This document shows positions 4,404 to 25,969 of a DNA stretch of 32,572 nucleotides, piece after piece. The notes beneath the pieces were generated by a model. That model did not search any database, was not told where the DNA came from, and saw nothing but the letters and a program-made list of their open reading frames with translations. The number at the start of each line of letters is the position of its first letter. The stretch's first letter is position 1. Position numbers and translations under genes: made by a program. This DNA comes from a virus (lineage: Duplodnaviria; Heunggongvirae; Uroviricota; Caudoviricetes): the IMG/VR virus record IMGVR_UViG_2802429232_000006; one strand, written 5' to 3'.

Positions 4404-4675
4404 GTATTCGTATTGAAATTGGCGAACGTTATGTCGTTACCAGTGACAGCTTTCAGTTTATTCTCCACGAGAAAAAGAGAGCTGAAAGCGGTAAAAACGC
4501 CGGTCAGGAATGGCTGGCGGTGGTTGGTTATTACCCGAAATTAAGCCAGCTCGTTTCCGGCCTGATGCATCACGATATTCTTACCGGAAGCGCAAAGTCT
4601 TTTGCTGATTTAAACGCGCAGGTTGAGCAACTCAGCAAGCGTTGTTCAGAGGCTTTTAGCTCATATGGCCGTTAA
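4400..4675 (+). CDS. Hypothetical early protein (P2 orf83 position)
   Basis: 91-aa ORF, 4-nt overlap with the upstream gene. Confidence 0.6.
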   Translation: MSIRIEIGERYVVTSDSFQFILHEKKRAESGKNAGQEWLAVVGYYPKLSQLVSGLMHHDILTGSAKSFADLNAQVEQLSKRCSEAFSSYGR

Positions 4676-6785
4676 AGCCTCCGGGCGTTTTGTCCCTCCG
4701 TCAGCATTTGCCGCAGGCACCGGTAAGACGTTTACCGGTGCTTATGCATGGAACGCGCCACGCGAGGCCGTCGGGTGCGAAAGACCCCTTACACGTGACG
4801 AGATGCGTCAGGTGCAAGGTGTTTTATCCACGATTAACCGCCTGCCTTACTTTTTGCGCTCGCTGTTTACTTCACGCTATGACTACATCCGGCGCAATAA
4901 AAGCCCGGTGCACGGGTTTTATTTCCTCACATCCACTTTTCAGCGTCGTTTATGGCCGCGCATTGAGCGTGTGAATCAGCGCCATGAAATGAACACCGAC
5001 GCGTCGTTGCTGTTTCTGGCAGAGCGTGACCACTATGCGCGCCTGCCGGGAATGAATGACAAGGAGCTGAAAAAGTTTGCCGCCCGTATCTCATCGCAGC
5101 TTTTCATGATGTATGAGGAACTCAGCGATGCCTGGGTGGATGCACATGGCGAAAAAGAATCGCTGTTTACGGATGAGGCGCAGGCTCACCTCTATGGTCA
5201 TGTTGCTGGCGCTGCACGTGCTTTCAATATTTCCCCGCTTTACTGGAAAAAATACCGTAAAGGACAGATGACCACGAGGCAGGCATATTCTGCCATTGCC
5301 CGTCTGTTTAACGATGAGTGGTGGACTCATCAGCTTAAAGGCCAGCGTATGCGCTGGCATGAGGCGTTACTGATTGCTGTCGGGGAGGTCAATAAAGACC
5401 GTTCTCCTTATGCCAGTAAACATGCCATTCGTGATGTGCGTGCACGCCGCCAGGCAAATCTGGAATTTCTTAAATCGTGTGACCTCGAAAACAGGGAAAC
5501 CGGCGAGCGCATCGACCTTATCAGTAAGGTGATGGGCAGTATTTCTAATCCTGAAATTCGCCGGATGGAGCTGATGAACACCATCGCCGGTATTGAGCGT
5601 TACGCCGCCGCAGAGGGTGATGTGGGGATGTTTATCACTCTGACCGCGCCGTCAAAGTATCACCCGACACGTCAGGTCGGAAAAGGCGAAAGTAAAACCG
5701 TCCAGCTAAATCACGGCTGGAATGATGAGGCATTTAATCCAAAGGATGCGCAGCGTTATCTCTGCCGTATCTGGAGCCTGGTGCGCACGGCATTCAAAGA
5801 TAATGATTTACAGGTCTACGGTTTGCGAGTCGTCGAGCCACACCACGACGGAACGCCGCACTGGCATATGATGCTTTTTTGTAATCCACGCCAGCGTAAC
5901 CAGATTATCGAAATCATGCGTCGCTATGCGCTCAAAGAGGATGGCGACGAAAGAGGAGCCGCGCGAAACCGTTTTCAGGCAAAACATCTTAACCGGGGCG
6001 GTGCTGCGGGATATATTGCTAAATACATCTCAAAAAATATCGACGGCTATGCACTGGATGGTCAGCTCGATAACGATACCGGCAGGCCGCTGAAAGACAC
6101 TGCTGCGGCTGTAACCGCATGGGCGTCAACGTGGCGTATCCCACAATTTAAAACGGTTGGCCTGCCGACAATGGGGGCTTACCGTGAACTACGCAAACTG
6201 CCTCGCGGCGTCAGCATTGCTGATGAGTTTGACGAGCGCGTCGAGGCTGCACGCGCCGCCGCAGACAGTGGTGATTTTGCGTTGTATATCAGCGCGCAGG
6301 GTGGGGCAAATGTCCCGCGCGATTGTCAGACTGTCAGAGTCGCCCGTAGCCCGTCGGATGACGTTAACGAGTACGAGGAAGAAGTCGAGAGAGTGGTCGG
6401 CATTTACGCGCCGCATCTCGGCGCGCGTCATATTCATATCACCAGAACGACGGACTGGCGCATTGTACCGAAAGTTCCGGTCGTTGAGCCTTTGACTTTA
6501 AAAAGCGGCATCGCCGCGCCTCGGAGTCCTGTCAATAACTGTGGAAAGCTCTCCGGTGGTGATGCTTCGTTACCGGCTCCCACACCTTCTGAGCACGCCG
6601 CAGCAGTGCTTAATCTGGTTGATGACGGTGTTATCGAATGGAATGACCCGGAGGTCGTGAGGGCGCTCAGGGGCGCATTAAAACACGGGCTGAGAACGCC
6701 AAATCGTCAGCAAGGAAACGGAAGCCCGTTAAAACCACATGAAATAGCACCGTCGGGCAGATTGAACAGGTGGGAACGATTGTAA
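4665..6785 (+). CDS. A: Replication initiation protein A (rolling-circle nicking endonuclease)
   Basis: ORF track starts at 4623, but ATG at 4665 (MAVKASGRFVPP...) matches the P2 A N-terminus as I recall it; HWHMM motif resembles HUH-type initiator; phage ori expected inside the 3' part. Confidence 0.88.
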   Translation: MAVKASGRFVPPSAFAAGTGKTFTGAYAWNAPREAVGCERPLTRDEMRQVQGVLSTINRLPYFLRSLFTSRYDYIRRNKSPVHGFYFLTSTFQRRLWPRIERVNQRHEMNTDASLLFLAERDHYARLPGMNDKELKKFAARISSQLFMMYEELSDAWVDAHGEKESLFTDEAQAHLYGHVAGAARAFNISPLYWKKYRKGQMTTRQAYSAIARLFNDEWWTHQLKGQRMRWHEALLIAVGEVNKDRSPYASKHAIRDVRARRQANLEFLKSCDLENRETGERIDLISKVMGSISNPEIRRMELMNTIAGIERYAAAEGDVGMFITLTAPSKYHPTRQVGKGESKTVQLNHGWNDEAFNPKDAQRYLCRIWSLVRTAFKDNDLQVYGLRVVEPHHDGTPHWHMMLFCNPRQRNQIIEIMRRYALKEDGDERGAARNRFQAKHLNRGGAAGYIAKYISKNIDGYALDGQLDNDTGRPLKDTAAAVTAWASTWRIPQFKTVGLPTMGAYRELRKLPRGVSIADEFDERVEAARAAADSGDFALYISAQGGANVPRDCQTVRVARSPSDDVNEYEEEVERVVGIYAPHLGARHIHITRTTDWRIVPKVPVVEPLTLKSGIAAPRSPVNNCGKLSGGDASLPAPTPSEHAAAVLNLVDDGVIEWNDPEVVRALRGALKHGLRTPNRQQGNGSPLKPHEIAPSGRLNRWERL

Positions 6786-7012
6786 ATACCCCATATAAGA
6801 GTTGTTCTTGCTCAACATGGCATCTGAACGCAAAGATAAAAGCCTGGGAGGCATACAGATAGTCCTGCTGTAAGTTAGTTGGAAAAAGATTGATTTACTT
6901 TATTACAGGAAGCCTCGATAAAATAATTCTAACGTGGATAAGGATATAAATTTATTATAATGAATCTGTCAATATTATAATAAATGTTATTTTTAAAGAG
7001 ATGAAAGGTAGG

Positions 7013-7042
7013 GTTGTTGTTTGTTGGTTTTTGTGATATAAT
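7013..7042 (+). promoter_or_regulatory. Putative sigma70 promoter for the cargo cassette (extended -10)
   Basis: TTGTTG (7013-7018), 18-bp spacer, TG-n-TATAAT (7034-7042); about 40 bp upstream of the cassette start. Confidence 0.45.
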
Positions 7043-7082
7043 ATTAAATTCATGTAACTAGTAAATGCAAATGGAAAAAAGC

Positions 7083-8219
7083 ATGAGAATAAAATCACTG
7101 GAGACATATAACTCTCACAGTAAATTGAAAATTAATAAAATAGAATTCAAATCACTGACCTTATTGGTTGGTGCTTCAGGTGTAGGGAAAACACAAATAC
7201 TTCGTTCTATCAATAAAATAAAGTCTATCGCACATGGTGATTCCGTTAGTGGGTTTTGCTGGAACGTTGAGTTTAATGCTGAAGGTAATGATTATCAATG
7301 GTCTGGTGAGTTTGAGGCGCTGGAGGATTATGATGATTTTACTTATGGAATGTTTCATTTTGATGATGACGACAAGGTTGAACCAAAAATTATAAAAGAA
7401 GAAGTTAAAATCAATGGTTCAATTATTATCACCAGAAGTGGCGATGATATCGTTTATAATGACAGTAAAACAGTTAAGCTGGCTTCTACAGTTAGTATAG
7501 TTCATCACTTGCGTGAGGAAGATGATATTTCGGTTATACACAAGTCATTTTCACGAATTGTGCAAGTTGATGATGATGAAATGCATAAGGTGTTTCCTAG
7601 AAAAAATAAAGATGCTTCAGAGGATGAAGAGCTTAGCATCAATGATATCAGAGAGAAGTCATTCTCTTTGAGTGCTAAGTTGTATTTGTGTCAAGAAAAA
7701 CAACCAGTCTACTTTCATCAAATTAAAAATTCATTTGTGGAGATTTTTCCATATATTGAAGATATAAAGGTGGTTAAGGTTGATACAAGAGGGATTCCTT
7801 TCTTTGTTCATTCTGTATATGCACTCAAGGTTAAGGAAAGAGGGATTGATGAGTGGATTTCGCACAATTCAATGTCTACCGGGATGTTGAAAACATTTGT
7901 CCAACTGGCATATCTGCATCTTAGCCCGACGGGAACTGTGTTCTTAATTGATGAGTTCGAGAATGGCTTTGGTGTTAACTGTATTAATGATATAACAGAT
8001 GTGCTACTACATCATGGTAATGATGTTCAGTTTATTTTGACGAGTCATCATCCTTATATTATAAATAACATACCGCTTGATAACTGGAAAATTATTTCAA
8101 GGAAGGCCGGGGTTGTTGATAACTATTCTGCGGATTTTTTTAATTTAAAAGAATCCAATCATGAGGCGTTTACTAAATTAATAAATTTAAGCGTTTATTT
8201 TGATGGTGCGGATAGATGA
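7083..8219 (+). CDS. ABC-type / AAA_21-like ATPase, candidate defense-system component
   Basis: Longest ORF starts at 7065; ATG at 7083 (MRIKSLE...) fits the family N-terminus. Walker A GASGVGKTQ, Walker B VFLIDEFENG, H-loop-like LTSHHP, signature-like SMSTGM; acidic inserts; AT-rich codon usage unlike flanking phage genes. Confidence 0.8.
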   Translation: MRIKSLETYNSHSKLKINKIEFKSLTLLVGASGVGKTQILRSINKIKSIAHGDSVSGFCWNVEFNAEGNDYQWSGEFEALEDYDDFTYGMFHFDDDDKVEPKIIKEEVKINGSIIITRSGDDIVYNDSKTVKLASTVSIVHHLREEDDISVIHKSFSRIVQVDDDEMHKVFPRKNKDASEDEELSINDIREKSFSLSAKLYLCQEKQPVYFHQIKNSFVEIFPYIEDIKVVKVDTRGIPFFVHSVYALKVKERGIDEWISHNSMSTGMLKTFVQLAYLHLSPTGTVFLIDEFENGFGVNCINDITDVLLHHGNDVQFILTSHHPYIINNIPLDNWKIISRKAGVVDNYSADFFNLKESNHEAFTKLINLSVYFDGADR

Positions 8220-8926
8220 ATTTGTATATTTTGGCTGAGGGGCGACAAACAGAGCGAAGAATCTATCCGGCATGGATAGGCGTTCTATCTCCATCTTTAA
8301 AGCAAGTTGAGTGTTTGTCTGCAATAGATAAAAACAACTATTATTTTATAAGCGGCGAGGGATATCCTCGTATGATTGATGTGACGCTTATTAATGCAAT
8401 TAAAGATATACATGATAACCCTAAATTTACCGATTTTTGGGTTGTGCTAGACTCTGAAGGAGAGGATGTTGAGGCAAGGAGAGAGCTTGTTAGAAATAAG
8501 ATTGATTCTTCTGGTATAGATATATCTCATTGTGAAGTAAATATAATAGTTCAAAATCCGTGCATAGAAACGTGGGGGCTAGGGAATCGAGTCATTATTT
8601 CGCCAAATAAGTTGACTGAATCTTTTTTGGACTATTATGAGCACTATGATGTGTCATCCAATGATCCAGAGGGTATGGGAAAGCCTCTTGCCTATGACGG
8701 ATCAATTGCTAAGTATCACGAGAGTTATTTAAAAAGTATGCTTGCTTTAAGAAATGCAATGTATACGAAAAAAAATCCAGCAGCATTGATGGAGCCTTCA
8801 TATTTGCAACAGCTTATATCCAGAGCTTATGCTGAGGATGGACATATACCAAGCTTTAGGCATTTTCATACGTTGGCTACTCAGCTTGAGGCTAAAGCGA
8901 AAATGTTGGAAAGCCGTGTAGCGTAG
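8216..8926 (+). CDS. Partner protein with TOPRIM/DUF4276-like acidic motifs, candidate effector
   Basis: 236 aa; ATGA overlap with ATPase stop; N-terminal LYILAEG..E, later VVLDSEGED and NPCIETW motifs. Confidence 0.75.
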   Translation: MNLYILAEGRQTERRIYPAWIGVLSPSLKQVECLSAIDKNNYYFISGEGYPRMIDVTLINAIKDIHDNPKFTDFWVVLDSEGEDVEARRELVRNKIDSSGIDISHCEVNIIVQNPCIETWGLGNRVIISPNKLTESFLDYYEHYDVSSNDPEGMGKPLAYDGSIAKYHESYLKSMLALRNAMYTKKNPAALMEPSYLQQLISRAYAEDGHIPSFRHFHTLATQLEAKAKMLESRVA

Positions 8927-8930
8927 AATT

Positions 8931-8977
8931 GACGACATCATGCTTTTTTGTGCATGATGTCGCATTTGTTTTTTTAT
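8931..8977 (+). terminator. Rho-independent terminator after the cargo cassette
   Basis: Stem GACATCATGC / GCATGATGTC (8934-8943 / 8952-8961), 8-nt loop, then a T-rich tract (8966-8976). Confidence 0.7.
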
Positions 8978-9060
8978 GTCCTCTCTAACCAATATTGCTC
9001 TGTTCGTTAGTATTTGTAGCGGGCATGCACCTGCATTAAAACCGACCCATGAAGTGGGCG

Positions 9061-9079
9061 GGCGAGGCGGGGAAAGCAC
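9061..9079. other. cos: cos site (19-nt cohesive end sequence)
   Basis: GGCGAGGCGGGGAAAGCAC matches the P2 cohesive end as I recall it; lies between the accessory region and Q as in P2. Confidence 0.7.
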
Positions 9080-9221
9080 TGCGCGCTGGCGGTGGTGCTG
9101 ATTTTATTTTTTCAGCGTCTGAGCGCGTCGTGATGGCGTTTAGATTGTGCGCCGGGGTGTTGGTGTGTCTGCGGGATGTTTTGTGCGGTGGTGAGCGTGT
9201 GAGGGCGTGATGACGGGGGGT

Positions 9222-9243
9222 AAAAAAGCCGCCCGCAGGCGGC
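9222..9243 (-). terminator. Rho-independent terminator downstream of Q (minus strand)
   Basis: On the minus strand: GCCGCC-TGCG-GGCGGC hairpin followed by U6 (plus-strand A6 at 9222-9227), immediately after the Q stop. Confidence 0.7.
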
Positions 9244-9248
9244 GATGT

Positions 9249-10283
9249 TCAGCCGTTGTCAGTGTCCAGTGAGTAGTTTTTAAAGCGGATGACCTCCTGG
9301 CCGAGCCAGCCGTTTATTTCCCGAATCCTGTCCTGTAGCGGGATAAGCTCATTGCGGACAAAGACCTTTGCCACTTTCTCAATATCACCCAGCGACCCGA
9401 CGTTCTCCGGCTTGCCGCCCATCAACTGAAAGGGGATGCGGTGCGCGTCCAGCAGGTCTGCGGCACTGGCTTTTTTGATATTAAAAAAATCGTCCTTCGT
9501 TGCCACTTCACTGAGCGGGATAATTTTAATGCCGTCAGCTTTCCCCTGTGGGGCATAGAGAAACAGATTTTTAAAGTTGTTGCGGCCTTTCGATTTAACC
9601 ATGTTTTCGCGGAGCATTTCGATATCGTTGCGATCCTGCACGGCATCGGTGACGTACATGATGTATCCGGCATGTGCGCCGTTTTCGTAATACTTTCGGC
9701 GGAACAGCGTGGCCGACTCATTCAGCCAGGCAGAGTTAAGGGCGCTGAGGTATTCCGGCAGGCCGTACAGCTCCTGATTAATATCCGGCTCCAGCAGGTG
9801 AAACACGGAGCCGGGCGTGAAAGGTGTCGGCTCGTTGAAGGAAGGCACCCACCAGTAAACATCCTCTTCCACGCCACGGCGGGTATATTTTGCCGGTGAG
9901 GTTTCCAGTCTGATGACCTTACCGGTGGTGCTGTAACGCTTTTCCAGAAACGCATTACCGAACACCAGAAAATCCAGCACAAAGCGGCTGAAATCCTGCT
10001 GGGACAGCCACGGATGCGGGATAAATGTCGAGGCCAGAATATTACGTTTGACGTAAATCGGGGAGCTGTGATGCACGGCAGCACGCAGGCTTTTTGCCAG
10101 ACCGGTAAAGCTGACCGGCGGCTCATACCATCTGCCGTTACTGATGCACTCGACGTAATCCAGAATGTCACGGCGGTCGAGTACCGGCACCGGCTCACCA
10201 AAGGTGAATGCCTCCATTTTCGGGGCGCTGGCGGTGATTGTTTTTGCCGCAGGTTGCGGTGTTTTCCCTTTTTTCTTGCTCAT
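9249..10283 (-). CDS. Q: Portal (capsid portal) protein Q
   Basis: 344 aa, the P2 Q length; start overlaps the P stop. Confidence 0.93.
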   Translation of the reverse strand: MSKKKGKTPQPAAKTITASAPKMEAFTFGEPVPVLDRRDILDYVECISNGRWYEPPVSFTGLAKSLRAAVHHSSPIYVKRNILASTFIPHPWLSQQDFSRFVLDFLVFGNAFLEKRYSTTGKVIRLETSPAKYTRRGVEEDVYWWVPSFNEPTPFTPGSVFHLLEPDINQELYGLPEYLSALNSAWLNESATLFRRKYYENGAHAGYIMYVTDAVQDRNDIEMLRENMVKSKGRNNFKNLFLYAPQGKADGIKIIPLSEVATKDDFFNIKKASAADLLDAHRIPFQLMGGKPENVGSLGDIEKVAKVFVRNELIPLQDRIREINGWLGQEVIRFKNYSLDTDNG

Positions 10284-20394: not shown

Positions 20395-20917
20395 TTCGCG
20401 ACTGCTGCCGACCGGCTCATCACCGCTTGAGGTCGCCGCCGCAAAAGCCTGTGCGGAAATTGAAAAAACGCCGGTCAGTATTCGTGAGCTGTGGAATCCG
20501 GACACCTGCCCGGCAAATCTGCTGCCGTGGCTGGCGTGGGCGTTTTCGGTCGACAGGTGGGATGAAAAGTGGCCGGAAGCGACAAAACGCGCCGTTATCC
20601 GCGATGCCTATTTCATTCACTGTCATAAGGGCACTATAGGCGCAATCCGACGCGTGGTGGAGCCGCTCGGCTATCTCATTAACGTAAAGGAATGGTGGGA
20701 GACAAACGACCCGCCCGGCACTTTCCGGCTTGATATCGGCGTACTGGAAAGCGGTATCACAGAGGAAATGTATCTGGAAATGGAACGGCTGATTGCCGAT
20801 GCCAAACCCGCAAGTCGCCACCTTATCGGTCTGAACATTATCCAGGACATTCCCGGCTATCTGTATACAGGCGGTGTGGTCTGTGATGGTGATGTTATTA
20901 CTGTTTATCCCGGATAA
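20387..20917 (+). CDS. I: Baseplate protein I
   Basis: 176 aa, the P2 I length. Confidence 0.9.
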   Translation: MSDSRLLPTGSSPLEVAAAKACAEIEKTPVSIRELWNPDTCPANLLPWLAWAFSVDRWDEKWPEATKRAVIRDAYFIHCHKGTIGAIRRVVEPLGYLINVKEWWETNDPPGTFRLDIGVLESGITEEMYLEMERLIADAKPASRHLIGLNIIQDIPGYLYTGGVVCDGDVITVYPG

Positions 20918-20927
20918 GTGAGAAACA

Positions 20928-23549
20928 ATGAGCACGAAATTTAAAACCGTTATCACTACTGCCGGAGCCGCAAAGCTGGCTGCCGCCACTGTCCCCGGCG
21001 GGAAAAAAGTAACCCTGTCTGCAATGGCCGTGGGTGACGGAAATGGCAAATTGCCGGTGCCGGATGCCGGTCAGACGAAGCTGGTGCATGAGGTCTGGCG
21101 TCACGCTCTGAATAAAGTCAGCGTGGATAATAAGAATAAAAACTATATCGTGGCTGAACTGGTTGTACCGCCCGAAGTGGGCGGTTTCTGGATGCGTGAG
21201 CTTGGTCTGTATGACGATGTCGGAACACTGATTGCGGTCGCTAACATGGCAGAAAGCTATAAGCCTGAACTGGCTGAAGGCTCCGGACGTGCGCAGACCT
21301 GCCGCATGGTCATTATTGTCAGTAACGTGGCGTCCGTTGAGCTGAGTATTGATGCCAGCACAGTGATGGCGACACAGGATTACGTCGATGACAAAATCGC
21401 AGAGCATGAGCAGTCCCGCCGCCATCCTGACGCCACGCTGACAGAAAAAGGTTTTACCCAGTTAAGCAGTGCAACAAACAGCACCAGTGAAAAGCTGGCA
21501 GCAACGCCAAAGGCAGTAAAAGCAGCCTATGACAATGCTGAGAAACGTCTGCAGAAAGACCAGAACGGTGGTGATATTCCAGATAAGGGCGCTTTTCTGG
21601 ACAATGTTGGCGTTACCAGCCTGACGTTTATGAAACACAATGGAATGATTCCAACCACTGACAATCTTGACTCCTATGGCCCAGAAGAAAAATATCTTGG
21701 AACGTGGTCATGCCCGTCACAATCCACTGCAAAACCAGAGTCTGGTTACCCTGAAGATAAAGGCAATGGGGTTCTGGAAGTATTCAATGCTGGTCGCTTT
21801 CACTGCACACAACGCTACACTACCCGAACCGGTAATATTTACATTCGGATGCTTGATGCAGAATGGAACCCTGTCAGTCCTGTATGGAGTGCATGGAGAG
21901 TTATTACAAGCGGGACTCGCCCATTAAGCACGCCAATTGACCTGAATTCTTTAGGTGGTGCGGAACACCTGGGAATATGGCGCAATAGCAGTACATCAAT
22001 AGCCTCATTTGACCGTCATTTCCCGGAGGAAGGGAGTTTTGGGCAGGGTATTCTGGAAGTCTTTGAAGGCGGTCTGTATGGGAGGATGCAACGTTACACC
22101 ACCCGTAGTGGGACTATGTACATTCGTGGACTGACTGCCTCATGGGATGCAGAAAATCCACAATGGGAGGACTGGATTGCTGTTGGGTATCAGTCCACGG
22201 GATGGACTTATTCAGGGGATCTTGATGACCTTTTAAAGCCTGGTATTTATAGCGTTACGAAACAGGCCACAAATGCACCTGTCACCGACTCTAAAGATCT
22301 TGCTGTTGGCTCAATAGTTGAAGTGAAAAAACGTTGTGATATTGAATCGTATATCCAGACATACACGACTGTTTCAGCAACGGATGCCTATAAAAACCGG
22401 ACATTTCAGCGAACCCGCGCCAGCGGTGAAACTGACTGGGGGGAATGGGCGGAAGTATACAACTCAAAATCATTACTCACTAAATTAGGTGTCGGCGGTG
22501 TTACCGACAGGTTATCCAGTCTGGACTGGCAGACCTACGACTTTATACCGGGCAGCATGATAACTGTCAGGCTTTCAGATATGACCAATATTCCCGATGG
22601 GATGGAATGGGGCGTCATTGATACTAACCTGATAAATATCACTGTTGGCCCCAGTGAAGGCGGAGGTGTCGCCCGTTCAATGCAGGTATGGCGCAGCACT
22701 TCAAACAAAACCAACTATCGTTTTTTTACAGTCCGCTTATATGGAAATCCTGGGGAGCGTAGCTTCAATATTCGTCGGCTACCAATTATCGACGAAGCCC
22801 AGACATGGGAGGCAAAACAGACATTCAGTGCAGGCCTTTCTGGTGAACTGTCCGGCAATGCGGCTACAGCAACAAAGCTGAAAACGGCAAGGACAATTAA
22901 CGGCGTAAAATTTGACGGCTCGGCAAATATTGAAGCATTTCCGCCTGGTGTTCCGCTGCCGTGGCCATCAGATACACCACCTGCGGGCTATGCAATTATG
23001 CAGGGGCAGACGTTTGATAAGGCAGCATATCCGAAACTGGCTATAGCCTATCCTTCTGGTGTTATTCCAGATATGCGCGGCTGGACAATCAAGGGCAAAC
23101 CCGCCAGTGGGCGTGCCGTATTGTCACAGGAACAGGACGGGATTAAATCGCATACTCACAGCGCCAGTGCGTCAAATACGGACTTAGGAACGAAAACGAC
23201 CAGTTCATTTGATTACGGCACGAAGACGGTCAGTACATTTAACCACGGCACAAAATCAACGAACAGTACGGGCAATCATACGCACACTGTCGGTGGTGTT
23301 TATGGCGGCGACTCTGTCGGTGGAAAACAGCGTGTACAGGCTTCAGGAAACAATCAGGTGTCCAGCACCGCCGGAGCGCACGCCCATACGGTGGATATTG
23401 GTCAGCATAACCACACTGTAGGTATTGGTGCCCATGCACACACTGTGGCCCTGGGTGCGCACGGACACACCATCACGGTAAATGCTACGGGTAATACCGA
23501 AAACACCGTCAAAAACATCGCATTTAACTATATTGTGAGGCTTGCATAA
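20928..23549 (+). CDS. H: Tail fibre protein H (mosaic, extended C-terminal receptor-binding region)
   Basis: 873 aa versus about 669 in P2; N-terminal ~200 aa P2-H-like, then lower-GC region with tandem ~70-aa repeats and HxH-rich tip. Confidence 0.88.
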
Positions 23550-24127
23550 TGGCTTTCAGAATGAGTGCAGAAGCACAAACTATCCGCGTTTTCAATTTAC
23601 TTGATGGAACCAATGAATTTATTGGTGAAAGTGACGCATATATTCCGCCGCATACAGGTCTGCCTGCAAACAGTACAGATATTGCACCGCCTGATATTCC
23701 GGCGGGTTTTGCTGCCGTTTTCAATGCAGCTGAAATGAAATGGGAACTGATGGAAGACCATCGCGGAAAGACCGTCTACGAAACGAAAACGGGAGCAGCC
23801 ATTTATATTTCTGAACTTGGCGCATTACCTCCAGACGTGACAGCCATTTCCCCGGATGGGGATTATCAGAAATGGAACGGAAATGCGTGGGTGAATGATG
23901 AGAATGCAGAGCGTGATGCGCTTGTCAGAGCGGCTGACTCTCAGAAGAAAGAGCTGATTGCATATGCAGGTGAAATTATTGCCACGCTGCAGGATGCTGT
24001 CGATTTAGATATGGCTACCGAGGAAGAAAAGTTAAGCCTGACACACTGGAAAAAATACCGTGTGCTACTGAATCGCGTTCAGCCGGAAAATGCTCCGGAT
24101 ATAGAATGGCCAGAAATGCCGCAATAA
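23549..24127 (+). CDS. G: Tail fibre assembly chaperone G (Tfa family)
   Basis: 192 aa; 1-nt overlap with the H stop; Tfa-like sequence. Confidence 0.85.
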
Positions 24128-24455
24128 ATCGTATTAGCTCTGGTGTGAGATTACTCATCTATGGCACAGAGTAAAACCTAATCTGACTGTCCGCTCTGTG
24201 CTAGGAGCGGACGTGATGCATATCTGTCACCAAATTTAATGTGCCACTACAAACAGAGTATATAGTTGAATATTATAGTGCACCCCGGCCTCATGAATAT
24301 AACGGTGGATTACCGCCGAACGAGTCGGAAAATAGATACTGGAAAAACTCTAAAATCGAGGCCAGTTTTTGTTGTTCTCTACAATAATAATCGGATTTTC
24401 CCATGACAAGTTTAATAGTATTTAGGTGCCTGAAGTGAAGTTGAAGAAGCTATTG

Positions 24456-25535
24456 ATGAAAGTTGTGAAAGTGGTAAAGGAGCAGGTTCTAAGTACCGTT
24501 ATTTCGGGAATAATAGGCATAGCGGCTACAGTAGGGCTTTTCCATTTCACTTCACAGCCAATACGATCTGCTGATGTTCGCGAAAAATTAGTTGAAATGG
24601 CTCGGGAGTGCATCCAGCAGCAGCTTGCCACACATTTGGACTCAGTGGCGTTTGACTCAGTGGCTAGCGAGTCTCTCGATCTAAGCACCTCAAACTCCGT
24701 TGTAGTCTACGGAAGAGCTGTGAGCACAAATGGTGCCCTTAGCCGTTTCCTGATGGTCTTCGAGCCCTCTGGACAGAGTTTGATAGATAAGGTGGTTGGC
24801 AGACCTGGATTCTACGATATTGGGTATTGGGCAATCATCCCAGACGCAGGGGACGACGAGGTTGTGGCTTCTTCAGTAAACATTGAAGACCTCGACAAAG
24901 ATGGTAACAAGGACATACTAGTCCGCTTAAAGTCAACTTACGCGGATGGTGTATCCAAAGGGCTTCTTATACTTAAAAAGGATATCCATGATGTATGGCA
25001 TTTGATGGGGCTTCCATCAATGACAGAGATCATGCATTCCATTGCTGCAGGTCAGCCTCCCCAGCCGGAAGGTCTTCACCTTCCACTTCCGGCAATACAA
25101 TGGTTTAGTAATGACGAAAAACTCAAACCAAAGTCTGATATCAAACAATATCTTAATTGGGAAATTGACGAAGATAACTTGCAGGTCGCTGATTCCACTG
25201 GAAATCATTCTTTTTGGATGTTCAGAAACGGCACCAAGATAAAAATGTTCGAGAATGGACAAGCCGGCTACAAGCACTTTGGTGTACTGGTCAACATCAA
25301 TGATGAAGAGGCGATACAGGGAAGGCATCATCTCATGGTCAGCTTTTTCAAGATAGAGAATAATAGTTTGGTTCCTGATCCGAATTGGAACTGGGCCTAT
25401 CCCATGTTCTCTATCGGATTAGAGGATAGCCAAGAAGTTGAATTGAGTGACATGCAGGAAGCGGGCTTACAAGCTCATGTTTCTGGTAGCTCCGTTTTCG
25501 GCCTGACAGAGTTTGGGAAAATGGACTCAGATTAA
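24456..25535 (+). CDS. Hypothetical membrane-anchored protein, cargo at the Z/fun hotspot
   Basis: ATG at 24456 (359 aa) preferred; longest ORF starts at GTG 24426 (369 aa). Single N-terminal TM helix (VLSTVISGIIGIAATVGLFHF), then soluble domain with no recognisable catalytic motif; AT-rich relative to flanks. Confidence 0.7.
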   Translation: MKVVKVVKEQVLSTVISGIIGIAATVGLFHFTSQPIRSADVREKLVEMARECIQQQLATHLDSVAFDSVASESLDLSTSNSVVVYGRAVSTNGALSRFLMVFEPSGQSLIDKVVGRPGFYDIGYWAIIPDAGDDEVVASSVNIEDLDKDGNKDILVRLKSTYADGVSKGLLILKKDIHDVWHLMGLPSMTEIMHSIAAGQPPQPEGLHLPLPAIQWFSNDEKLKPKSDIKQYLNWEIDEDNLQVADSTGNHSFWMFRNGTKIKMFENGQAGYKHFGVLVNINDEEAIQGRHHLMVSFFKIENNSLVPDPNWNWAYPMFSIGLEDSQEVELSDMQEAGLQAHVSGSSVFGLTEFGKMDSD

Positions 25536-25846
25536 TATTCGCTAACCTTACCAACGAAGAGCAGGTCACAGGTATGGCCTAATTATGTTTTCAGAGGAGT
25601 CAGGGCTCAAGAATGCCCCCAGATAAGCCGTAAATCCTGTAGCGCAAAATCGTCTCAGATGACGCAGAGATATTAAAAACGCCTCAACCTGTTCATCAAT
25701 TAATTGATAGGTTGAACTGTTAGTTAAACTTTCACCAGCAGAAAGGTATGAACTTTTTCGACTCGCTCAAAGCTGGCTGTCAGAGCTGATAGCGTTTTGG
25801 CTACGTAAATTGTCAGTTGGAAACTGAGCGAGTACAAATCAAGACT

Positions 25847-25873
25847 GGCGGGCTGATTGCCCGCCTTTTCTTT
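25847..25873 (+). terminator. Rho-independent terminator
   Basis: GGCGGGC-TGATT-GCCCGCC followed by TTTTCTTT. Confidence 0.8.
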
Positions 25874-25969
25874 ATCTGTTGTTTCATCCACTGACCAGTC
25901 AGGTCAAATAGCGTCTCATGCACTGCCCAACAGAAAATAGTTGCACCCATTAACCACGGAGTTAAACGG
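25874..25969 (+). promoter_or_regulatory. Late promoter PF region (Ogr-dependent) upstream of FI
   Basis: Between a strong terminator and the FI start; contains palindrome CTGACCAGTCAG (25891-25902); assignment by P2 analogy. Confidence 0.45.

Follow-up and report, generated by a model that had tools for sequence, protein, structure and literature searches.

Pairs of an ATP-binding cassette (ABC) ATPase and a Toprim-fold protein form a recognised class of systems that includes Old, Gabija, PARIS, AbiL, MADS3-4 and RloAB (PMC11464382; PMC13064643; PMC10568477). PARIS is the best-understood model, in which a sensor ATPase releases a tRNA-cleaving nuclease (PMC11464382), and AbiL, which has been grouped with PARIS, is a validated two-gene abortive-infection system of lactococci with a mechanism that is not known (PMC13064643; PMC11464382). 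In P2-like phages the interval between gpA and gpQ is a defence hotspot; across 18,150 loci, 1,650 different arrangements have been recorded, and 169 systems were curated from it (PMC9122126, section 10). Here we analyse a cassette of two genes, encoding an ABC ATPase and a putative Toprim-fold nuclease, on an AT-rich island in P2-like (Peduovirus) prophage DNA (IMG/VR record IMGVR_UViG_2802429232_000006); the window denotes the whole stretch of 32,572 nt that was analysed. The island is horizontally acquired cargo of the gpA-gpQ (cos-proximal) variable hotspot. That it is a foreign ATPase and Toprim cargo at this known site is close to certain, and the probability that the cassette acts in anti-phage defence, which is argued by analogy with its relatives, is put at roughly 70%.

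The gene order of the window is that of the hotspot, with gpA, the island, cos and the portal gene following one another (Table 1) and the terminase gene next, also on the minus strand. Backbone homology restarts at 9024, and the core of the P2 cohesive end, GGCGAGGCGGGGAAAGCAC, is found 86 bp past the terminator of the cassette, so that cos does lie right after the island, as the initial annotation had proposed; in P2 itself, the record NC_001895 places cosR at its end. The flanks alone are matched by 88 P2-like phage records, 81 of them at 90-99% identity, and in relatives this spot is filled by different genes: DUF3850 with a hypothetical gene, DUF4209, DUF4238, Fic or, in P2, old/tin. Earlier publications already cover the hotspot, this type of system and the cassette itself. 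A system #127, 'SMC_N/AAA_15/AAA_21 | RloB', is listed with 21 occurrences by Rousset et al. 2022 in their Table S5B (PMC9122126). It comes from the same locus, its ATPase is identical from MRIKSLE onwards, and its partner differs at one residue (N versus S, four residues before the C-terminus); system #127 and the cassette are the same thing. The catalogue entry consists of domain labels and a count. A second, unrelated ATPase and RloB system (#90) is also in that listing, and the name AbiL was not found in the text of either hotspot paper.

The composition of the island departs clearly from the rest of the prophage, as had been predicted. In 500-bp sliding segments the guanine-plus-cytosine content (G+C) was 0.32-0.38 in every one across 6751-9000, against 0.56 at 6251-6750 and a return to 0.49-0.56 from 8751 on (flanks 0.51-0.58), and the lowest 500-bp value elsewhere in the 32.5-kb window was 0.41. 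Taken as a whole, the island compares with a G+C of 0.530 for the remaining window, and its 250-bp leader (6833-7082) has a value of 0.28. At third codon positions, G+C is 0.30 and 0.33 in the two island genes, compared with 0.54 in gpA, 0.65 in the portal gene and 0.71 in the terminase gene. This composition shows a recent foreign origin of the cassette. No RNA family reached the gathering score anywhere in the window (Rfam), indicating that there is no known RNA component.

The AT-rich block reported at 6786-8990 stands, but its exact ends do not. BLAST of the window against three P2-like phages (Table 1) delimited the foreign segment to 6833-9023, and the foreign DNA begins 47 bp to the right of 6786 because the homology of the relatives runs to 6832. 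A composition scan by itself can locate such cargo to within about 50 bp. Insertion between gene A and cos was upheld by the alignment with P2-like relatives, with the added point that gene A has lost its 3′ end. Where gpA stops prematurely, at TAA 6783-6785, relatives have CAA followed by 20-58 further codons, and the decayed remnant beyond the stop holds two additional in-frame stops; from the early TAA and this remnant we conclude that the insertion cost gene A its 3′ end. PGAP labels the same gpA in E. coli 23CRST009 a pseudogene, 'missing C-terminus'. The stretch 6700-6832 shows 80-87% identity to almost all of 516 other matching E. coli genomes and 99.5% identity in the single genome that likewise has the cassette, such that this gpA allele co-occurs exclusively with the cassette among complete E. 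coli genomes. When 6500-9300 was searched for repeats, neither direct nor inverted ones bracketed the island, and hence there is no transposon or integron signature; exchange of the island by recombination in the conserved flanks is more likely. The description of the island as a moron agrees with its composition, its patchy presence and, at the sequence level, a promoter and terminator of its own, although it had missed that the site is a known defence hotspot and that the two genes form a candidate defence pair catalogued before.

The first gene encodes an ABC ATPase of the SMC/Rad50 type. Its product scored 57.3 bits against Pfam AAA_21 (cut-off 27), and its PADLOC matches were AbiLi (8.3e-19, the best), AriA (1.1e-14) and HEC-01A (3.7e-14). 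Across 24 homologues, down to 39% identity, the Walker A residues G30-x-S32-G33-V34-G35-K36-T37, signature residues S265/G267, Walker B residues D290-E291 and H-loop residues T320-S321-H322-H323 are invariant; together with a conserved D-loop and an ABC fold, these are the features of SMC/Rad50-type ATPases, and the catalytic motifs are intact. For an AlphaFold2 model of the protein (predicted local distance difference test score, 81.9), the best Foldseek matches were retron/Septu PtuA and the SMC and Rad50 heads (E 2e-12 to 1e-9), and the nearest solved relatives by sequence were AriA (E = 7.5e-5) and PtuA. The most likely start is the ATG at 7083, because most close homologues are 378 amino acids long, the upstream ATG in Klebsiella is out of frame and the published table begins the protein with MRIKSLE; two further in-frame ATGs, at 7065 and 7071, are weaker candidates. 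No useful name came from NCBIfam or PHROGs: the ATPase matched PHROGs of unknown function and the partner matched nothing.

The second gene would supply the nuclease. A Toprim domain is defined by a Glu after strand 1, a Gly after strand 2 and a DxD motif (PMC6755086), and these are represented in the partner by E8-G9, G49 and D79-x-(D/E)81, all invariant in 29 partner sequences. Three further residues, E13, E118 and K185, are invariant in the same set, and T119 is present in 28 of the 29. The two-metal site of the B. pseudomallei OLD protein comprises E400, E404, D455/D457 and T506/E508, with K562 as catalytic lysine (PMC6755086); E13, E118-T119 and K185 would correspond, in the same order, to its second-metal ligands and lysine (E404, T506/E508 and K562). 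The fold of the partner matches OLD C-terminal regions, with similarity to solved OLD catalytic regions. At E ≤ 0.01, the AbiLii model matched 28 of the 29 family members, RloB 18, DUF4276 six, and DUF3226 and OLD-like_TOPRIM two each; for the partner in the window the PADLOC match to AbiLii was 8.5e-6. A profile of the partner family run against PDB sequences returned chance matches (S100, ISG15; E > 0.3).

By its signals, the island is predicted to be a self-contained transcription unit with a promoter, two coupled genes and a terminator. The initial annotation had named a promoter, two genes and a terminator, and each was recovered: two genes, both on the plus strand and overlapping at ATGA; an extended -10 promoter, TGATATAAT, read directly at 7034-7042; and a clean terminator, noted at 8931-8977 and found at 8933-8975. 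The element TGNTATAAT occurs once in the whole window, and transcription is predicted to start near 7049. Support for the promoter comes from its conservation in three phage backbones. In the homologous cassettes of an Enterobacter (L005) and a Klebsiella (L017) prophage, a block TTGTT...TGTG(A/G)(T/C)ATAAT is found 44-49 nt before the start codon; the leaders of these cassettes have diverged beyond BLAST detection with the promoter block still present, and the upstream neighbours of the three cassettes differ (gpA, DinI and a small open reading frame). The promoter thus appears to travel with the cassette. The arms of a perfect 12-nt inverted repeat, ATTTATTATAAT / ATTATAATAAAT, stand 12 nt apart at 6950-6985, 50-85 bp upstream of the -10 element; the repeat could be an operator or a chance product of AT-rich DNA, and it is not obviously retained in the Enterobacter or Klebsiella leader.

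The terminator begins 7 nt past the stop of gene 2, its 11-bp stem is perfect and its tail closes in a run of seven T. It folds with a free energy of -20 to -22.5 kcal/mol (z -4.6 to -5.8), and none of 200 shuffles folded equally well. Corresponding positions in relatives fold weakly (z +0.2 to -1.5), from which it follows that the strong hairpin is specific to the cassette and not part of the backbone. The 3′ arm of the hairpin coincides in part with a backbone motif, TGCAT(G/C)A-N4-5-GCA(T/C), that is present in every relative about 100 bp to the left of cos.

Several results weigh against a defence pair expressed in this manner. Taken by itself, the promoter motif is not statistically unusual, as at least one TGNTATAAT was present in 37 of 100 shuffles of the window, and a generic sigma-70 scan, in which the region showed no excess of sites (6 versus 9.1 ± 2.6 expected), missed the promoter at 7034-7042 because its -35 element TTGTTG fits three of six positions. 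DNA of 35% G+C is a typical H-NS target in E. coli, and the cassette could be silenced. In addition, a terminator scan found no plus-strand terminator between gpA and gene 1, and because of this, read-through of early-operon transcripts may supplement or even dominate the transcription of the cassette. These observations would suit a cassette that owes most of its transcription to the early operon (cox-B-A) reading through in lytic growth and that is silent in the lysogen, with TGnTATAAT a chance occurrence. We consider this rather unlikely, given that a -35-like and extended -10 block stands at a conserved distance from the start codon in three otherwise diverged leaders and that P2 old/tin, annotated lysogenic-conversion genes at the same locus, have mapped transcript starts of their own. 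By analogy with old/tin, expression of the cassette in the lysogen is plausible. On the protein side, the partner reached 19.3 bits for Pfam RloB (PF13707), under the curated cut-off of 31.5, a Foldseek search with it against the PDB gave nothing significant, and when the partner family was compared with P2 Old by hhalign, the alignment did not extend beyond an 11-residue VEGxTE motif, at a probability of 2.7%. Among described systems, #127 is absent from the tables of tested systems in Rousset et al. 2022, and HEC-01 protected against no phage in its one test (bioRxiv 10.1101/2024.01.29.577857).

Of 5426 complete E. coli genomes, a single one carries the cassette. A search of 50,697 phage records did not recover it, and no phage isolate has it; the sole match in a phage collection was on a faecal contig of 4.2 kb, with 39% identity. 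The Enterobacter copy occupies the same slot in a 186-like prophage (partner 81% identical, cassette DNA 78%) and the Klebsiella copy is in a P2-like prophage (partner 75% identical). More distant copies lie in a degraded prophage remnant (L011; 55% identical), in a Pantoea prophage (L008; 51%) and beside an unrelated integrase (47%). Directly behind the ATPase, a partner of 229-241 amino acids also occurs in Brevibacillus, in Kamptonema (a cyanobacterium) and in a Desulfococcaceae genome; by hhalign the Kamptonema and Desulfococcaceae partners match the family at E = 1e-79 and 1e-74 with about 40% identity, and across phyla both proteins are still about 40% identical. The order and adjacency of the pair are constant across the P2/186-like prophages of Enterobacter, Klebsiella and Pantoea, the remnant and these three genomes, and the module is also found on small plasmids, both in Acinetobacter, Proteus and Methylovorus (9.8-15 kb) and in Nostoc. 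On this distribution, the ATPase and its partner are a conserved, mobile module.

The position of the cassette next to gpA and cos, and the fact that SMC/Rad50-type ATPases and Toprim enzymes also work in DNA repair and replication, might point to a role in the DNA metabolism of the phage itself, in replication, recombination or help with packaging near cos. This is very unlikely: nearly all P2-like phages are without the cassette, it is as rare as described above in E. coli genomes and phage isolates, the same pair resides in chromosomes and plasmids without phage context, and its composition marks it as a recent arrival.

The plasmid copies, and a copy kept in a degraded remnant that has lost most phage genes, are what would be expected if the pair were mainly an addiction module akin to toxin-antitoxin systems, with the Toprim nuclease as toxin and the ATPase as antitoxin, stabilising its carrier. 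PARIS itself acts as a type II toxin-antitoxin pair (PMC13064643), and the Pfam text for AAA_21 reads 'putative AbiEii toxin, Type IV TA system' (TA, toxin-antitoxin). However, the enterobacterial copies recur in the P2 defence hotspot, one copy adjoins a Septu-like system, and the relatives AbiL and PARIS show anti-phage phenotypes (PMC13064643; PMC11464382). An addiction function, which would be compatible with defence, is therefore unlikely to be the main one, and we retain anti-phage defence as the preferred reading.

Some of these loci deserve separate mention. On the Desulfococcaceae contig (L016, 4221-6282), the pair lies 3 kb from a 599-amino-acid AAA_21 ATPase followed by an HNH protein, and this Septu-like neighbour suggests a defence-island setting. 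The remnant (L011-L013, from metagenome and Logan contigs) consists of a truncated gpA of 475 amino acids, the cassette, the portal gene and a truncated terminase of 365 amino acids between chromosomal genes; here the cassette outlasted the phage, which is consistent with an addiction effect or with selection acting on the cargo. In the Pantoea prophage (6567-6615) and the remnant L011 (6708-6770), the cassette is placed between the cos-like sequence (compare window 9024-9086) and gpQ, with the stops of partner and portal gene just 28-36 bp apart. As these two copies lie on the opposite side of cos from those in the window, Enterobacter and Klebsiella, the cassette family uses both halves of the hotspot. 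Among E. coli prophages the closest, that of 23CRST009 (L001), is 97.4% identical in the backbone and 99.8% in the cassette. It differs from the window in three places: the integrase/repressor end (1-2921), an extra PAPS-reductase-domain gene that L001 carries ahead of gpA (4653-4692), and the tail-fibre region (20820-25944), where the G+C of the window is 0.41-0.49. The same cassette therefore occurs in mosaic backbones.

By analogy with PARIS, the ATPase is probably a sensor that governs the nuclease as its effector. The cassette would be expressed from its own promoter in the lysogen, and translational coupling would keep the two proteins at a constant ratio. The ATPase, as sensor and keeper, would hold the Toprim nuclease inactive in a complex until a product of a superinfecting phage triggered its ATP-dependent release or activation. 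The two-metal nuclease might then cut nucleic acid, either tRNA (the PARIS model) or DNA (the OLD/Gabija model), and the infection would abort, protecting the lysogen population and the resident prophage. We infer each of these steps from PARIS and OLD, that is, expression in the lysogen, the complex, the trigger, the substrate and the anti-phage phenotype.

Table 1. Positions in the window of the cassette, its signals, its flanks and the limits of homology to P2-like phages.
Feature	Position	Strand	Remarks
Replication gene A (gpA), left flank	4623..6785	+	Pfam Phage_GPA E = 8.7e-124; premature end at TAA 6783-6785
Decayed remnant of gpA 3′ coding end, left junction	6786..6832	+	aligns with gpA of vB_YpM_50 and 569R9
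Foreign AT-rich island (hotspot cargo)	6833..9023	.	2191 bp, G+C 0.351; unmatched by P2-like relatives L002-L004
Promoter-like element	7014..7042	+	-35-like TTGTTG 7014-7019, 17-bp spacer, extended -10 TG-A-TATAAT 7034-7042
Gene 1, ABC (SMC/Rad50-type, AAA_21) ATPase	7083..8219	+	378 amino acids; Pfam AAA_21 E = 3.4e-15
Gene 2, Toprim-fold RloB/DUF4276/OLD-like putative nuclease	8216..8926	+	236 amino acids; start overlaps gene 1 stop (ATGA)
Intrinsic terminator	8933..8975	+	stem 8933-8943/8952-8962, 8-nt loop, T-rich tail 8963-8975
cos cohesive-end core (P2), right flank	9061..9079	+	exact matches in window, L001, L002 and L004
Portal gene	9249..10283	-	right of cos
Homology to Yersinia vB_YpM_50	stops 6832, restarts 9024		BLAST
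Homology to Escherichia 569R9	stops 6832, restarts 9025		BLAST
Homology to pro483	stops 6762, restarts 9026		BLAST

Two further features were seen around cos. The TGCAT(G/C)A-N4-5-GCA(T/C) motif and a second one, CATGCA-N-CTGCAT, stand to the left of cos in all P2-like relatives regardless of cargo, and may belong to the packaging signal; sites of this TGCAT type were located at 8951-8966 and 9031-9043 of the window and in L002, L004, L005, L008 and L011. Directly past the portal stop, at 9228-9243 on the minus strand, a G+C-rich hairpin, GCCGCCTGCGGGCGGC, is followed by a run of T, and this is likely the terminator of the Q-P operon, pointing at the cassette across cos.

The island is a textbook example of the exchangeable, and as predicted self-expressed, defence cargo that temperate phages carry beside cos; such a finding is ordinary for the locus and opens no new question. 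The value of the cassette as a candidate lies in its being compact (1.85 kb) and widespread, with intact catalytic motifs, and if it showed a clear phenotype, AbiL/RloAB-type systems would gain a tractable E. coli model.

Compared with the described systems, P2 Old, a Class 1 OLD nuclease, occupies the same hotspot and shares the logic of ABC ATPase and Toprim nuclease as well as the VEGxTE Toprim motif, but it is a single 586-amino-acid fusion on the opposite strand. A direct relation to P2 Old was rejected, since BLASTP with the ATPase was not significant and the alignment of the partner was confined to the short motif described above. The OLD family proper (Class 1/2) was likewise set aside, because its proteins are fused polypeptides and the cassette consists of two separate overlapping genes. 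PARIS (AriA and AriB) has in common with the cassette an ABC ATPase of the AAA_15/21 clade and a separate Toprim nuclease, and it is often found in P2/P4 hotspots. AriA is about 460 amino acids long, compared with 378 here, indicating shorter insertions in the ATPase of the window. Membership of PARIS was rejected, as the DUF4435/AriB models matched neither the partner nor any of the 29 family members at E ≤ 0.01.

HEC-01 (Hma-embedded candidate 01, PADLOC) has the same layout of ATPase and Toprim protein, and its ATPase model is among those matched by gene 1. HEC-01B models match up to six of the 29 partner-family members, the partner in the window falling outside E ≤ 0.01, and HEC-01 came from Hma systems, not phages. 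In AbiL (AbiLi and AbiLii, from Lactococcus lactis) and RloAB (Campylobacter), an ABC ATPase is likewise followed by a small RloB-family Toprim-like protein. AbiLi and AbiLii are the best PADLOC matches for the two proteins of the cassette, and AbiLii has been reported to superimpose on an OLD nuclease (PMC13064643). Nevertheless, AbiL and RloAB are distant in sequence, with the partner lying below the Pfam RloB cut-off, and AbiL resides on a lactococcal plasmid whereas the carrier here is a Gram-negative P2-like prophage; host and target phages are unrelated as well.

The partner sits between RloB, DUF4276 and DUF3226 without reaching the curated cut-off of any family, and the pair, carried by phages, plasmids and chromosomes, is spread through Proteobacteria, Cyanobacteria, Firmicutes and Desulfobacterota. 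We suggest tentatively, as a possibility that we do not favour, that the pair is a distinct, unnamed branch of the ABC-ATPase/Toprim defence systems, perhaps with a phage trigger and nucleic-acid target of its own, unlike those of PARIS, Old and AbiL. Of the systems described so far, the cassette most resembles AbiL/RloAB/HEC-01.

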